Positions 19,169 to 32,511 of a DNA stretch of 64,000 bases are shown here, piece by piece (the stretch's first letter is position 1; every line of letters starts with the position of its first letter). A program made the translations under genes and the position numbers. The notes below the pieces were generated by a model. It was not told the DNA's origin. It saw only the letters and a program-made list of their open reading frames with translations, and searched no databases. The stretch covers positions 64,001-128,000 of the forward strand of contig CAWHCF010000052.1 of assembly GCA_963827655.1 (NCBI GenBank), in the 5' to 3' direction. The stretch comes from an uncultured Acidobacteriota bacterium (GTDB lineage: Bacteria > Acidobacteriota > UBA6911).

Positions 19169-19269
19169 ATTTTGTGGCTCAATCCTTTGTTTCCTGGTTA
19201 GATCATAGGAGCGTTTTCTTGGGCGCTTAGCGAAACGTTCAAACCATGTTGTCGTTCACATGGGGCCTT

Positions 19270-19297
19270 TCGTTCGGGGCGAGGTCCCCGAACGAAC
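19270..19297. other. perfect 11-bp inverted repeat upstream of recA
   Basis: TTCGTTCGGGG-CGAGGT-CCCCGAACGAA. Confidence 0.6.
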
Positions 19298-19363
19298 CTT
19301 AGCGTCTTCGCGTCCGTAAGAGCGAGGAGAGGTATCATTCAAGTCGCGCAGAAGGGACAAAAG

Positions 19364-27605: not shown

Positions 27606-28883
27606 TTATGGAATACCGGAAAGAAGAAAATCCATGGTGTTATCGGTCGCCCCCTGGTTTTGCCTGAAGGTGCTGGCAGCGCGCTGCCCGAGGATATTCC
27701 GAGCCCTGGTATTCCGGAGAAGCTCAATCAAGGCGCCAGGAAGTGATTCCAGAGTGGACTGGCGGGCTGCCTGCTCGTGCAAGAAAACCCGGGCTATCTC
27801 CCTGAAATTCGACATTTCCGGACCAAAGATGATGGCCTTGCCGAATGCGGCCGGCTCGAGCGGATTGTGTCCCCCGTGAGGAAGAAGGAAACTGCCTCCG
27901 ACTACAGCCACGGTTGCGAGAGAATAGACCGCGCGCAGCTCGCCAATGGTATCGAGCAGCACGACGTCGGCTGATAAACCGCCGTCCAATTCGGTGCGGC
28001 GCGCGAAGGCCACGCCAGAGCCTTTGAGAAGATCTGCTACTTCGTCGAATCGTTCAGGATGACGCGGGGCCAGAATCATGCGGGCGTTAGAAATCGTCTG
28101 CCGCACTTTACCAAATGCCGCCAAAAAGTGCGGCTCTTCTCCCTTCATGCTGCTTCCCACCACAATGGTGACCACCCCTTGATCCAGGCGCAGGGTCGAT
28201 TTGATCTTTGACAGCAAGTCGCGGTGCGGTTCCAGTTCGGGTATGGGGAAGTCGAATTTGAGGTTCCCTGTCACTCTGACCCGCCGCTCCTCGGCCCCCA
28301 GTTCCAGGAAGCGGTTCTTGTCTTCATGGGATTGTGTCCCGATCACCGTCAGGTGGTGGAGCATGCTGCCGGCCAGCATCTTGAGGCGCCGGTAGCGCCG
28401 CAGCGACCGGTCGGAAATTCTCCCGTTGGCAACGAAGACCGGAATCTCCTTTCGCGCGCAGGCTCTGAGGAAGTTCGGCCACAATTCCGTTTCCATGAGG
28501 ACAACGGCGCGCGGCTCCACTCTCGAGAGAAACCGCTTGACGCTGAAGTTCCAGTCAAAAGGGAAGTAGAAGACATCGGCCGCGGGCGACAGTTCTTTCC
28601 GGGCCAGCGCCTGGCCCGTCAACGTAACGGTAGAGCAGACAACCGGAAGCTGCGGCCGCGTCTTCTGGAGAGACAAGACCACAGGTTTGGCCGCCAGGAC
28701 CTCACCGACCGAGACACAATGGATCCAGAGAGGTCTCTGCCCGGGATGCGCATCCGGAAGCTTCAAGCCCAGCCGCTGTCGGAAGTTGGCTATGTACTTC
28801 TTCTCCCTGATCGCCTTATATATCCAGTAGGGAGAACCGACCAAGGCTGAAACGGTGAGAACCAGAGAGTACAGGAAATACAT
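27606..28883 (-). CDS. waaA: 3-deoxy-D-manno-octulosonic acid transferase
   Basis: WIHCVSVGE, ETELWPN, TGNLKFD, APRHPERF, GGHNPLEPA. Confidence 0.95.
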   Translation of the reverse strand: MYFLYSLVLTVSALVGSPYWIYKAIREKKYIANFRQRLGLKLPDAHPGQRPLWIHCVSVGEVLAAKPVVLSLQKTRPQLPVVCSTVTLTGQALARKELSPAADVFYFPFDWNFSVKRFLSRVEPRAVVLMETELWPNFLRACARKEIPVFVANGRISDRSLRRYRRLKMLAGSMLHHLTVIGTQSHEDKNRFLELGAEERRVRVTGNLKFDFPIPELEPHRDLLSKIKSTLRLDQGVVTIVVGSSMKGEEPHFLAAFGKVRQTISNARMILAPRHPERFDEVADLLKGSGVAFARRTELDGGLSADVVLLDTIGELRAVYSLATVAVVGGSFLLPHGGHNPLEPAAFGKAIIFGPEMSNFREIARVFLHEQAARQSTLESLPGALIELLRNTRARNILGQRAASTFRQNQGATDNTMDFLLSGIP

Positions 28884-29035
28884 GGCAGTAATAATTCCTT
28901 AATCGAGGCGCAAATGCTCTCGCCCGCATATTCTAATCAGGACCTCACCCCGTGGAAACATTTGCGTTTCGCTCTTCTTGGTGTGTTACTTGACGCGCCA
29001 ACCACGAAGGCGCGAAGACACCCAGGGCAGGATGT

Positions 29036-29346
29036 GTGCTTAACCGTTTTGGGAACCGTCCTCGTTCCCGTTCCCGTCCACGTTCCCGATCAATCGACGT
29101 CGAGGCGCTTGGTGAGCTTAATCAACATCGACACGACGCGTTCGAGCATCGCCTTGCTGGCGCGCATCGATAAGCTTGAGCCATACGCAAACGTCAAGTA
29201 TGACTGCGGACTCGGTCGCTGGCCCAGCGGGGCTGAGATAATAGCGGCGCAATCGGCATTACTGTAGGATGCCGCCGGGAAAACGGGAACGGAAACGGGA
29301 ACGTGTACGAGGAGGGAACCCCCAGTTTGGTTAAGCGCCTAAGGCC
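29036..29346 (-). mobile_element. 6-mer-array (CGTTCC/GGAACG) element, copy 1, carrying the 3' remnant of a four-helix-bundle gene
   Basis: Both arms match 30611-30897 in inverted orientation. The minus-strand interior (29090-29259) reads in pieces DCAAI..ILDVCVWLKLID..SKAMLERVVSMLIKLTKRLDVD*. Confidence 0.8.
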
Positions 29347-29378
29347 AGGATCGTCCCCTTTTGGTTAATTCCCGGCTG

Positions 29379-29387
29379 TGCTAAACT
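29379..29387 (+). promoter_or_regulatory. putative extended -10 promoter of aminotransferase-serA
   Basis: TG-C-TAAACT ~60 nt upstream of the ATG. Confidence 0.4.
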
Positions 29388-29447
29388 TCGCGTCTTTCAT
29401 CGATGAGAAGCGGGCGCCCGCGCGCTTCTCCGTGAGGGAACGGATCC

Positions 29448-30620
29448 ATGAAGCCAATCGTTAAACGCCGCGTGTTCACGCCAGGTCCCACCCCGTTGCT
29501 GCCGGAAGCGATTTTGCCGGCACTGGTGGCGCCCATGCATCACCGGAAGGGGGATTTCAAGGCGCTCTTTCGTGAGGTGCAACAGGGCCTCGGACAAGTC
29601 TTCAAGACACGAAACGAGATCCTGCTCCTAGGTTGCTCCGGAAGCGGGGCCATGGAAGCTGCCATGACCAACCTGCTGGCTCCCGGACAGAAGGCCGTCG
29701 TGGCGGTTGCGGGAAAGTTCGGCGAGCGCTGGATGGAGCTGGCTGAAAAATTCGGCGTCCGAGCTGAAGTGGTGAAGGTGCCCTACGGCCAGTCAGTGAC
29801 GCCAGACCAGATTTCCGCCGCGCTGTCTAAAGATCCTGAGATCAGCGCCGTTTTTGTCCAGGCCACAGAAACATCCACGGGCGCCCGAATGGATATTGAA
29901 AGAATCGGAGCCCTGGTCAAACGCCAGGAAAACACCCTCCTCGTGGTCGACGCTATAACGGGCCTGGGAACGTCGCCCCTGCACACCGACGAGTGGGGGC
30001 TCGACATCGTCATTGGCGGATCTCAAAAAGCGTTCATGGTTCCTCCCGGGGTTGCGATGATGTCGGTCAGCGCGAAGGCCTGGAAGCAGATTGAGAAATG
30101 TGCTCGCCCTCGCTACTACTTTGACCTCGTGCGCGAACGGGCGGGGCAGCGAGAGGGCCAGAGCGCATTTACGCCATCCATATCCATCATTCAGGGATTA
30201 AAGGCTTCGCTTGATCTCATCCTTAAGGAAGGTGTGGATGGTCTGGTATTCAACGCCTCGCTGCAGGCGGGCGCTACGCGGGCGGCCATTACCAGCTGGG
30301 GGATGAAAATATTCCCGGACTGCCCCAGCGACGCGACTACCGCGTTCGTCCCGCCGTCGGGACTCAGCGCCGCCAAGGTGCAGTCGCTCATGGAAGAAAG
30401 GTTTGGCGTATTGATAAGCGGTGGTCAGGGAAACCTCAAGGGAAAGCTTCTCCGGATCGGTCACCTGGGCTACTTCGACTTTCTGGAAACGCTCGGGATG
30501 ATCGCATGCCTTGAACTCTCCTTCGTGGAGGCGGGCGCAACCATCGAGCTGGGCACCGGAAGCCGGGCTGCCGTTGAATACTACCGGCAAGCAACGGGAG
30601 CAGGACGCCCAGGTGCTTGA
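29448..30620 (+). CDS. Class V PLP-dependent aminotransferase (alanine/serine-glyoxylate family; probable phosphoserine aminotransferase role)
   Basis: FTPGPTP, SGSGAMEAA, ETSTG, VDAI, GSQKAFMVPPG, LRIGHLG; directly upstream of serA. Confidence 0.9.
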   Translation: MKPIVKRRVFTPGPTPLLPEAILPALVAPMHHRKGDFKALFREVQQGLGQVFKTRNEILLLGCSGSGAMEAAMTNLLAPGQKAVVAVAGKFGERWMELAEKFGVRAEVVKVPYGQSVTPDQISAALSKDPEISAVFVQATETSTGARMDIERIGALVKRQENTLLVVDAITGLGTSPLHTDEWGLDIVIGGSQKAFMVPPGVAMMSVSAKAWKQIEKCARPRYYFDLVRERAGQREGQSAFTPSISIIQGLKASLDLILKEGVDGLVFNASLQAGATRAAITSWGMKIFPDCPSDATTAFVPPSGLSAAKVQSLMEERFGVLISGGQGNLKGKLLRIGHLGYFDFLETLGMIACLELSFVEAGATIELGTGSRAAVEYYRQATGAGRPGA

Positions 30621-30897
30621 GAACTGGGGATTCCCTCCTCGTACACGTTCCCGTTTCCGTTCCCGTTTTCCGCGGTATTCTATAGCAATGCCATTTGATC
30701 ACGAGCGTCTCGACGTCTACCAGGTGGCCCTGGACTTCCTGCTGCTGGCCGGTGAAGCCAGTGAGCACCTGCCACGAGGGCGCAGCCACCCATCAGACCA
30801 GCTGACGAGGGCATCCAGCTGACGTCGATCGATCGGGAACGTGCACGGGAACGGGAACGAGGACGGTTCTCCAAAACGGTTAAGCACCCCTAAGGCC
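30611..30897 (+). mobile_element. 6-mer-array element, copy 2, carrying the 5' remnant of a four-helix-bundle gene
   Basis: GTACACGTTCCCGTTTCCGTTCCCG ... CGGGAACGTGCACGGGAACGGGAACGAGGACG arms; inverted homolog of 29036-29346. Confidence 0.8.
30688..30822 (+). pseudogene. truncated four-helix-bundle (23S rRNA IVP/Avd-like) protein, N-terminal 44 aa
   Basis: MPFDHERLDVYQVALDF...LPRGRSH..DQLTRASS*; matches the family's FxHExLDVY..DQLxRAS start. Confidence 0.78.
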
Positions 30898-30927
30898 CTT
30901 TGGGGCCTTTAGTAGTGGATTTGTCTT

Positions 30928-32511
30928 ATGACAAGGATCCTGATCCTGGAAGAAATAGCGCCGGCCGGGCTCGACCTGCTCAAAGCTGAGCCAAGCTTTG
31001 ACGTGCAGGAACTCTACGACGAGGACACCGGCAAGATTCAGCAGGCCCTCGCCGAGGCTGAAGTCCTGGTGGTTCGCAGCCGTACCAAGGTCACGGCCCA
31101 GCTGCTCGAAAGCGCCCCGAAGCTCAAGATCGTCGGTCGCCCGGGAACCGGGGTGGATAACGTCGACGTCCCTGCGGCCACTCGCCGCGGCATCGTAGTC
31201 ATGAACACGCCGGCAGGAAACAGCATCAGCGCTGCCGAACACACCATGGGACTCCTGCTCGCGCTGATGAGGCGAATTCCTCAGGCCGATTCCTCGATCA
31301 AGCAAGGAAAATGGGAAAGGCAGCGGTTTATTGGAACCGAACTGGACGAAAAAGTACTGGGCGTCATCGGCTACGGCAAGATCGGCATCGAGGTGGTGAA
31401 GCGCGCCCAAAGCTTCAGGATGAGGGTTGTGGTGTTCGACCCATACGTTTCCGACGCGCTAGCCCGGGACCATAACCTCCGCATGGTCAGTCTGGAGGAG
31501 CTTCTGGCGGAATCGGACATCGTGACACTGCATTGCCCGTTGACCGCAACGACCCGAAAGCTCATCAACACCGGCACGCTTGCCATGATGAAAGATGGCG
31601 CCTGCCTGATCAACGCCGCCCGAGGAGAACTGGTCGACGAAGGCGCGCTGCTGAACGCGTTGAAATCGGGAAAGCTGGCCGGAGCCGCCCTGGATGTCTT
31701 TGCCAACGAACCCAAACCCGACCCGGAGCTGGTCAGACTCCCGAGCGTCATCGCCACGCCCCACATCGGAGCCTCGACCGTCGAGGCCCAGGAGAAGGTA
31801 GGAGTAGATATTTCGATCCAGATCCGGGACTACTTCCGGGATGGGATTGTCCGGAATGCGGTTAATTTTCCCTCGGTTTCGCTGGCAGAATATCGCAGGC
31901 TGGCGCCCTATCTCGAACTCGGGGAGCGGCTGGGAAGTTTCGCCGGCCAGATCTGCAACGGCAGGATGGAGGAAGTGACGGTTCGCTACTACGGCGAGCT
32001 CGCCGAAATGAACACGCATCTGATCTGCAGCTCAATCCTGGTGGGAGTGCTCAGGCCGATTCTCACGGAGCGAGTCACGCTCGTGAACGCGGTGGAGACC
32101 GCAAGGGAGCGCGGCATAAGTTTCGTCGAGTCCACCAGCACCAGGCAGCGGAGTTACAGCAATCTCATCTCGGTCAAACTGATTACCAACCGCGGCGAAG
32201 AATGGGTGGAAGGGACGGTGCTGCATCAGAATCACCTTCACCTGGTCTCTCTTTACGGCATCGATGTCGATGCGCCGCTTCGGGGAGACATGCTCATCAT
32301 TCGCAATGCCGACACGCCGGGTGTTATCGGGCGGGTTGGGACTATCCTGGGAGATCAGCAGATCAACATCGCGAATTTCGCGCTCGGGCGCAGCGAGACT
32401 TCGCCTCAAGCCGTGGGCGTGGTCAACGTCGATTCCGAGATCAGCGCCCAGGTGTTGCAGGCGATACGCGCCTTGCCGCAGGTGCTGCTAGCCCAGGTCG
32501 TCCGGGTCTAG
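30928..32511 (+). CDS. serA: D-3-phosphoglycerate dehydrogenase
   Basis: VRSRTKV, GTGVDNVD, GVIGYGKIG, INAARG, TPHIGAST.EAQ, C-terminal ASB and ACT domains. Confidence 0.96.
   Translation: MTRILILEEIAPAGLDLLKAEPSFDVQELYDEDTGKIQQALAEAEVLVVRSRTKVTAQLLESAPKLKIVGRPGTGVDNVDVPAATRRGIVVMNTPAGNSISAAEHTMGLLLALMRRIPQADSSIKQGKWERQRFIGTELDEKVLGVIGYGKIGIEVVKRAQSFRMRVVVFDPYVSDALARDHNLRMVSLEELLAESDIVTLHCPLTATTRKLINTGTLAMMKDGACLINAARGELVDEGALLNALKSGKLAGAALDVFANEPKPDPELVRLPSVIATPHIGASTVEAQEKVGVDISIQIRDYFRDGIVRNAVNFPSVSLAEYRRLAPYLELGERLGSFAGQICNGRMEEVTVRYYGELAEMNTHLICSSILVGVLRPILTERVTLVNAVETARERGISFVESTSTRQRSYSNLISVKLITNRGEEWVEGTVLHQNHLHLVSLYGIDVDAPLRGDMLIIRNADTPGVIGRVGTILGDQQINIANFALGRSETSPQAVGVVNVDSEISAQVLQAIRALPQVLLAQVVRV

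Follow-up and report, generated by a model that had tools for sequence, protein, structure and literature searches.

Open reading frames (ORFs) enclosed by a stem of terminal inverted repeats are known from the intervening sequences (IVSs) of bacterial 23S rRNA genes, on which, for Leptospira, Ralph and McClelland reportedly wrote in 1993. A similar arrangement occurs outside rRNA in a 64,000-nucleotide stretch of DNA from an uncultured Acidobacteriota bacterium (the window, at its full length), in the form of two decayed copies of a small cassette whose gene, a member of family PF05635, stands between two arms of tandem hexamers. PF05635 is large, and we know of no function for it outside Avd of the diversity-generating retroelements (DGRs). 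Here we show that the two window features are decayed members of a multi-copy hairpin-cassette family that has multiplied in the genome, gene-less derivatives included; the identity of the cassette is well supported. The origin and mobility of ORF-bearing rRNA IVSs have been a question since the early 1990s, as the accessible part of PMC4990558 recounts, and the window adds a deletion series with a common-junction lineage and strain-level turnover at two sites.

The likeness to these IVSs is one of size and design. The helix-45 IVS of Coxiella burnetii (S23p) measures 428 nt, against ~490 bp for the cassette, and a PF05635 ORF is enclosed by a stem of terminal inverted repeats in both; shared also are a sporadic distribution, suspected horizontal transfer and the lack of a known mobility mechanism (PMC4990558, in the portion available to us). 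The same portion reports experimental evidence that the stem of an ORF-bearing IVS is cut by RNase III, whereas the stem of the cassette is a predicted one. Unlike IVSs, the cassettes lie between protein-coding genes, in mRNA spacers and promoter regions, their arms are tandem arrays of a short word, they are multi-copy in one genome, and derivatives without the gene have spread. A single 23S gene was found in this genome (C8:188093-191122); it contains no PF05635 match, and its rRNA has small expansions only, within the first part of the alignment. By analogy, we regard the cassette as an IVS-type element outside rRNA.

Short tandem words between genes have been described as intergenic heptamers (GGGAATC in Xanthomonas, GGGGAYT in Nostoc; Rehm et al. 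2015, PMC4692102), which often form two arrays on opposite strands, convergent and inverted, that are able to fold into stem-loops; neither a gene family nor mobile elements are connected with them in the accessible text of that paper. The cassette differs in its 6-nt unit and in that its arrays bracket a specific gene. With MITEs (miniature transposable elements with inverted repeats) and repetitive extragenic palindromes and their hairpin-forming doublets (REP/REPINs) it shares its small size, the presence of terminal inverted repeats or of a hairpin, a high number of copies at unrelated intergenic loci and the propagation of non-coding derivatives. In contrast to these elements, it has neither a cognate transposase nor a repeat-flanked RAYT in the assembly, no target duplication was seen by eye, and the full-length form encodes a four-helix-bundle protein, which to our knowledge is not a transposase fold.

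PF05635 is treated as uncharacterised in the parts available to us of a paper on TAACTGA repeats (PMC4679880), a DGR survey (PMC10053308), which also presents it as a Pfam family resembling Avd, and a preprint on rRNA insertions in the candidate phyla radiation (10.1101/2024.02.27.582315). In full-text searches of the literature, supplements of the cited papers aside, we found no published description of PF05635 genes outside rRNA that are bracketed by tandem-repeat arms.

Two decayed copies of one cassette in the window

The two copies lie in opposite orientation at window positions 29036-29346 (minus strand) and 30611-30897 (plus strand; Table 1). Sequence and repeat finder confirmed these positions, which a preliminary description made from the letters alone had assigned to a single kind of element. 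The gene-upstream arms (29278-29327 and 30622-30671) are 98% complementary over 50 nt, which is the 49 of 50 matches first counted, and the gene-downstream arms (29047-29101 and 30821-30875) agree at 93% over 55 nt without gaps, or at 95.5% over 67 nt with one gap in blastn. Within each copy the two arms are also complementary to each other (38 nt at 79%; 33 nt at 82%). Each arm consists of about five CGTTCC/GGAACG hexamers, tandem as originally described and imperfect, followed outward by the terminus GGTGCTTAACC / GGTTAAGCACC. The longer, CTTAACC-type ends that had been proposed for the element held up in part: the GGCCTTAGG extension is real, but of the ten aligned copies copy 1 has it at its left end alone and copy 2 at its right end alone, and the other eight lack it.

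The interiors were compared by tblastn with P0001, the protein of an intact sibling cassette elsewhere in the genome. In copy 2 (30688-30819) the match takes in residues 1-44 (82% identity), after which the sequence passes into the last codons. Copy 1 (29249-29130) encodes residues 63-104 at 64% identity, its last ~22 residues following in a second frame after an 11-bp deletion, within a match (29335-29093) of 40.7% identity overall. Residues 45-62 are present in neither. The complementary halves noted at the outset (1-44 in copy 2, 63-118 in copy 1) are thus real; their complementarity looks like coincidence, because each copy owns both a left and a right arm and the two are therefore separate elements. 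The same observation rules out a single element split by an inversion.

A cassette family with gene-less derivatives

The whole assembly (8.18 Mb, 53 contigs, 90% complete) was searched by blastn with both window copies, and the element was found on 11 contigs, in one case with an intact ORF. Ten copies are two-armed (C14, C29, C3, C8, C51, C41, C23, C19 and the two in the window), and solo arms lie on C44 and C40. The full cassette of ~490 bp holds a 118-codon gene between mutually complementary arms of ~60 nt with an 11-nt terminal inverted repeat (GGTGCTTAACC); the ATG stands ~25 nt past the left arm, and the stop codon 2 nt before the right arm. The sole intact copy is C14:39054-39540 (gene at C14:39134-39487, encoding P0001). 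The C29 copy is full length and frameshifted by a 1-nt deletion, and the remaining eight of the ten carry internal deletions, down to the arms alone in C19. In the alignment, homology among the ten copies is bounded by the left and right termini, the flanks are unrelated, and the 11-nt termini outside the hexamer arrays are kept in most copies. The similarity of the copies is not chance. The earlier picture of an element that spreads and decays by internal deletion fits this series, which in one genome runs compactly from intact and frameshifted forms through eight deletion derivatives, four of them from one gene-less ancestor, to solo arms.

The deletions themselves carry information on copying. 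One junction, which fuses the gene's first ten bases to codons 62-63, is common to four of the ten copies (C52a, in the window, C3, C51 and C41), whose flanks are unrelated, and no microhomology that would make the deletion recurrent is evident there; C51 and C41 share a second deletion as well. The presence of one deletion junction at four unrelated loci suggests that a gene-less derivative was copied to new sites, and the simplest reading is that it spread to at least four loci. The C23 deletion is of another kind: it lies between copies of a 14-bp direct repeat within the gene (the ERLDV codons near the start and the KRLDV codons at the end) and so is an ordinary deletion by slippage or recombination.

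Arrays of at least three CGTTCC-type units occur at 18 places in the 8.18 Mb, 13 of them within cassette copies and the other five all weak. This argues for arms that move together with the cassette rather than for arrays that stood there beforehand as its target, and it weakens a model in which the element recombines homologously into hairpins of the same word already in place. Strict adjacency to 8-mer arrays was also considered and dropped: a period-8 detector flagged none of the 12 copies, and the 8-mer-like stretches seen by eye (C52a, C51, C44, C40) are statistically unsupported. Taken together, the deletion series shows, as far as copy comparison goes, the arms to be the copied unit and the gene to be dispensable in cis. 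Given this, experiments on binding and mobility would be simple to design.

The arms as a trait of the gene family

Hexamer arms are not peculiar to this genome. At 10 of the 11 closest loci with both flanks available (60-77% protein identity; Myxococcota, Krumholzibacteriia and Acidobacteriota), CCCGNN hexamer arrays (CCCGCT, CCCGTT, CCCGTG, CCCGAT or CCCGCA) stand on both sides of the gene; the eleventh has an array on one side alone. Most of the ten have arms whose words are reverse complements of each other (about eight fully mirrored by eye, L021 and L022 partly so), which suggests that the arms change together. On a wider sample, tandem arrays flanked the gene on both sides at 31 of 65 loci with enough flank, against none of 129 displaced control windows, at least 10 inverted 8-mers were shared between flanks at 45/65 loci against 5/129 controls, and the period was 6 or 12 in 40 of 44 upstream arrays. 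In relatives from other phyla the hexamer arms are retained, whereas the terminal motif GGTGCTTAACC is missing. Gene orientation within the hairpin is not fixed, since the G-rich arm lies upstream in L026 and L027.

The same holds for other members of the family in the genome studied here. It has 13 PF05635 matches. At nine of 11 loci inspected the flanks share exact inverted 9-mer seeds, and at the remaining two degenerate arrays are visible by eye; seven different words are used in all. To judge from these comparisons, the arms are a trait of the PF05635 gene family and travel with the gene. A hexamer-specific clade of the protein spans Acidobacteriota and Myxococcota, which ties a protein clade to a 6-nt repeat period.

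One relative, in a metagenome-assembled genome (MAG) of a delta proteobacterium (L018, locus coordinates 1351-2000; 76% identity), has arms of at least 20 hexamer units. Its ORF continues into the right arm as a GTGTGT tail, giving an open frame of 161 aa.

The cassette protein

P0001 matches PF05635 with 74.9 bits (cut-off 33.8; E 6.8e-21) and TIGR02436 with 67.6 bits (cut-off 24; E 9.9e-19). The three remnant pieces in the window match no family of Pfam or NCBIfam at E up to 1, and are tied to PF05635 through their 82% and 64% identity to P0001 and through DNA homology. The family assignment holds because the intact sibling passes both profile cut-offs; the four-helix-bundle assignment proposed from the remnants is thereby borne out by way of the sibling, and not by the remnants' own profile matches.

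An AlphaFold2 model of P0001, built on a 49-sequence alignment (pLDDT 96.8), has helices at 9-27, 33-55, 59-85 and 91-117. Foldseek placed XCC0516 of Xanthomonas campestris (2GSC; TM 0.90) at the top, followed by BT_0352 (2RLD; TM 0.82) and the Avd protein encoded in the DGR of the Bordetella phage (4DWL; TM 0.81), and the DGR ribonucleoprotein structures 8UB7, 8UBE and 8UB8 were matched as well. The nearest solved relative, XCC0516, has five chains in 2GSC, and a title cited in PMC10053308 calls it a pentamer. With Avd (4DWL; 8UB7) the cassette protein thus shares the four-helix-bundle fold; unlike avd, its gene stands alone between repeat arms with no adjacent reverse transcriptase, and structurally aligned the two sequences are 9% identical.

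Scanning a single genome for each species gave 451 relatives, the best at 60-77% identity and mostly from Myxococcota MAGs, together with one Krumholzibacteriia and one Acidobacteriota MAG. Against nine relatives, pN was 0.13-0.28 and pS 0.63-0.94, and dN/dS was 0.14-0.18 in the five of nine pairs in which dS could be corrected, which indicates purifying selection on the cassette protein. By these measures the protein is under purifying selection and has crossed phyla. A link to defence, phages or plasmids was set aside: the protein belongs to no PADLOC or PHROGs family and has no tblastn match in plasmid or phage collections at E 1e-5.

Insertion sites and differences between strains

Related genomes give a view of the site of copy 2. 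Among 41 related genomes searched there was none of the same genus. Of seven related loci examined, five belong to other genera within the family, and in these the aminotransferase stop codon overlaps the start of serA (ATGA). In the window the spacer between these genes is 307 bp, with copy 2 exactly at the junction. In a more distant genome of the same class and another family (L015; G028:C227), the same junction has a 238-nt spacer with two gene-less hairpins of CAGGCTC heptamers. Because of these hairpins, the aminotransferase/serA junction looks like a repeated landing place.

Closer comparisons came from metagenome runs of soil or rhizosphere (X1, X3 and X4), in which most pieces are 95-99% identical to the window and some 90-95%. 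Contigs of all three agree with the window up to 30600/30601 and again from 30922, with other repeats in between, and those of X3 likewise depart from it between 29021 and 29332, where copy 1 lies. Matches to the foreign ends are found in an abundant ~90-bp element of the genome studied here and in the 8-mer arrays around it; both cassette sites therefore hold other repeat elements in sibling strains.

The arm pattern was found in three metagenome contigs. Two of them come from sibling strains, L098 corresponding to the C19 locus and L099 to the C41 locus, at 98% identity. In L099 the C41 copy is present with the first (5') of its deletions, and the contig ends before the second. In L098 the left arm of the C19 copy is kept, but the sequence departs from the copy 1.5 hexamers into the right arm and resumes ~670 bp on (C19:2125-2796 in the genome studied here); because the divergence falls inside the right arm, the arm acts as a deletion or insertion breakpoint between strains. 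The third contig, L097, represents an unrelated locus; its array is longer, and the 650 nt downstream of the match contain no PF05635 gene. Contig comparison shows the cassette family turning over between near-identical strains, and the difference at two cassette sites bears on the question of IVS mobility.

The ~90-bp element gives 86 blastn rows, 66 of them near full length (for example C36:86142-86250 and C8:32664-32776), and one copy lies in the window at ~19216-19314 (C52:83216-83314). It begins with CTTAGGCGCTTAGCGAAAC, ends with GAACGAACCTTAG, has an inner GC hairpin and usually lies within GTGTCTTC-type 8-mer arrays. CTTAG stands on both sides of it, like a target duplication, and its left terminus resembles the cassette terminus; the outermost 15 nt of the left end of copy 1 are common to both.

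How the cassette may be copied

In minimum-free-energy RNA folds, the left arm pairs with the right arm around the gene in copy 2 (z-score -3.1), in copy 1 (-4.6) and in the intact element. We consider it probable that the hairpin cassette, with a PF05635 gene in the loop of its stem and an IVS-like architecture outside rRNA, is copied by a trans-acting factor. Arms and termini would be the cis-acting part, and a factor supplied in trans would copy the cassette to new gene junctions without target duplication. The most likely such factor would be the cassette's own protein, made from the intact copy and binding the repeated arm words as a pentamer; host replication or repair might act on the hairpin together with it. 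Within a host transcript, the arms may fold into a long double-stranded RNA stem that is cut by RNase III as in rRNA IVSs, and such excision could explain how an insertion between translationally coupled genes is tolerated. The position of copy 2 at what is an operon junction in relatives makes transcript excision a plausible reason for this tolerance.

A bolder extension is that the four-helix-bundle pentamer reads its own arms, one 6- or 7-base word per subunit, that arms and protein form an unrecognised transposase-less mobile class of which the 23S rRNA IVS is a special case, and that gene-less remnants explain much of the excess of 6- and 7-base tandem repeats at bacterial gene junctions. 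We put this forward tentatively and think it doubtful as a whole.

Several observations weigh against the favoured explanation. Mobility itself is something we infer, from the distribution of copies and the differences between strains. The empty sites are those of different genera, whose proteins are 64-70% identical; no clean pair of filled and empty sites within one species was found, no joints were seen in the metagenome contigs compared with the window, and no metagenome contig searched contained an exact match to a 28-nt stretch of the aminotransferase gene's 3' end. The interiors of the window copies are spanned by none of the four runs compared, so that their arrangement rests on the assembly. 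The proposal that the arms stay conserved as the interior decays stands in part: both arms are kept in every deleted copy and a 26-nt left-arm core is identical in six of ten, but mean pairwise identity over the ten copies is 0.77 for the left arm and 0.67 for the right, not above the 0.80 of the gene remnants. On the RNA side, the full-length fold of the intact element has a z-score of only -1.0, and contigs of an RNA run (X15) lie on both host genes and on none of the cassettes. Sense and antisense arm hairpins of all ten copies (left arms shortened) have similar energies and G-U counts; since they are about equally stable, an RNA stem and a DNA hairpin or cruciform are not discriminated. 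Finally, completeness of the assembly stands at 90%, and a partner gene may have escaped it.

If such a partner were a conventional transposase, the cassette would be a non-autonomous, MITE-like transposon, recognised at its GGTGCTTAACC terminal inverted repeats by an enzyme encoded elsewhere and carrying the four-helix-bundle gene as cargo. The retention of the 11-nt termini outside the hexamer arrays and the spread of gene-less derivatives fit this, as does the left terminus of copy 1 (CTTAGGCGCTTA), which is that of the abundant ~90-bp element bounded by CTTAG on both sides, and the genome does have one Y1 transposase gene (a Y1_Tnp match at C35:41745). However, no tandem arrays lie within 1.5 kb of that match. 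The element itself is transposase-less, as first proposed, and its arms did not prove to be the ends of a larger, transposase-bearing element: of five motif pairs listed in the assembly, two were the cassettes themselves and three, which had no arm continuation, were chance pairs. A target-site duplication was seen at none of the ten copies, judged by eye on the alignment, without statistics and with ends defined to ~3 nt. Moreover, the terminal motif does not accompany the hexamer arms in relatives from other phyla, and the supposed cargo is under purifying selection and always accompanied by arms of its own word type. We therefore hold a MITE-like transposon to be unlikely.

The Avd fold and the Foldseek matches to 8UB7, 8UBE and 8UB8 raise a different prospect, in which the hairpin transcript is reverse-transcribed by a host enzyme with the Avd-like protein as cofactor, as in DGRs, and the cDNA is integrated; the lack of a visible target duplication would suit this route. 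Two RVT_1 matches exist in the genome (C22:192008 and C49:4426), but none of the 13 PF05635 matches is on those contigs and no CGTTCC arrays lie within 1.5 kb of either, so the association with a reverse transcriptase that the preliminary description had raised did not materialise. Identity to Avd is low, as given above, and there is no poly-A or other mark of a retro-copy. The flipped orientation of the gene relative to the C-rich and G-rich arms in L026 and L027 is easier to reconcile with a symmetric hairpin than with a directional RNA template, and we judge the RNA route improbable.

Least probable of all is that nothing moves, the arms being cis-regulatory RNA structures of a host gene family whose copies arose by ordinary duplication, recombination and decay: the stem does enclose the ORF exactly, the protein is conserved and no mobilising enzyme was found in the assembly, but the copies sit at unrelated loci with homology stopping at the arm termini, gene-less derivatives share one deletion at four of these, copy 2 splits a gene overlap conserved in five related genera, near-identical strains have different elements at both sites, the closest proteins (60-77%) are in another phylum, and syntenic conservation of the copies across the family was not seen at the one junction tested.

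Features and neighbouring genes in the window

The coordinates of both copies and of the genes beside them are collected in Table 1. The last codons of the aminotransferase gene and its TGA stop (30618-30620) fall in the left terminus of copy 2. Upstream, on the opposite strand, lies a Kdo-transferase (kdtA) gene, and copy 1 is in the divergent spacer between kdtA and the aminotransferase gene. The sole sigma-70-like promoter match in 28800-31100, at 28930-28958 on the minus strand, is between copy 1 and the Kdo-transferase start, in a number no greater than shuffled sequences give. On this single consensus match, copy 1 is probably upstream of the Kdo-transferase promoter rather than in its transcript.

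Table 1. Cassette copies and adjacent genes, in window coordinates
Feature	Position	Strand	Basis
Copy 1, gene-downstream (right) arm: terminus GGTTAAGCAC and ~5 GGAACG-type hexamers	29036..29089	-	sequence, repeat finder, alignment
Copy 1, gene remnant: ATGCC joined to residues 63-118, in two frames (11-bp deletion)	29090..29259	-	tblastn, alignment
Copy 1, gene-upstream (left) arm: CGTTCC-type hexamers and terminus GGCGCTTAACC, preceded by GGCCTTAGG	29278..29346	-	repeat finder, alignment
Class-V aminotransferase gene, between the two copies	29448..30620	+	PF00266, E 3e-24
Copy 2, left arm: terminus GGTGCTTGAG and CGTTCC-type hexamers	30611..30671	+	repeat finder, alignment
Copy 2, gene remnant: residues 1-44, then stop	30688..30822	+	82% identity to P0001 1-44
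Copy 2, end of the gene (last codons) and right arm: hexamers of GGAACG type, GGTTAAGCACC as terminus (30878-30888), followed by CCTAAGGCC	30821..30897	+	repeat finder, alignment
serA-type D-3-phosphoglycerate dehydrogenase gene	30928..32511	+	profile search, comparison with related loci

Other repeat-bracketed genes in the genome

A second multi-copy PF05635 cassette family, with CAGAAGT/CAGGAGT heptamer arms, has five copies (C51:53465, C32:33728, C26:254324, C4:22263 and C19:49651). Decay is seen here too, as an internal deletion in at least C19:49651 and as an apparent frameshift in C4 and in C26:254324. In the downstream flanks of two further PF05635 genes (C25:45220-45531 and C26:290717-291013), the last ~100 nt of the gene and the right arm recur in two to three tandem repeats with a period of ~110-165 bp. 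At C19:35526-35878 (minus strand), a frameshifted gene for a PDDEXK_3 (GxxExxY-type) nuclease stands between inverted 8-mer arrays, of GAAGTCAC type upstream and GTCTTCGC type downstream; because this gene is bracketed in the same way, the hairpin-cassette design occurs also at a second, unrelated small gene.

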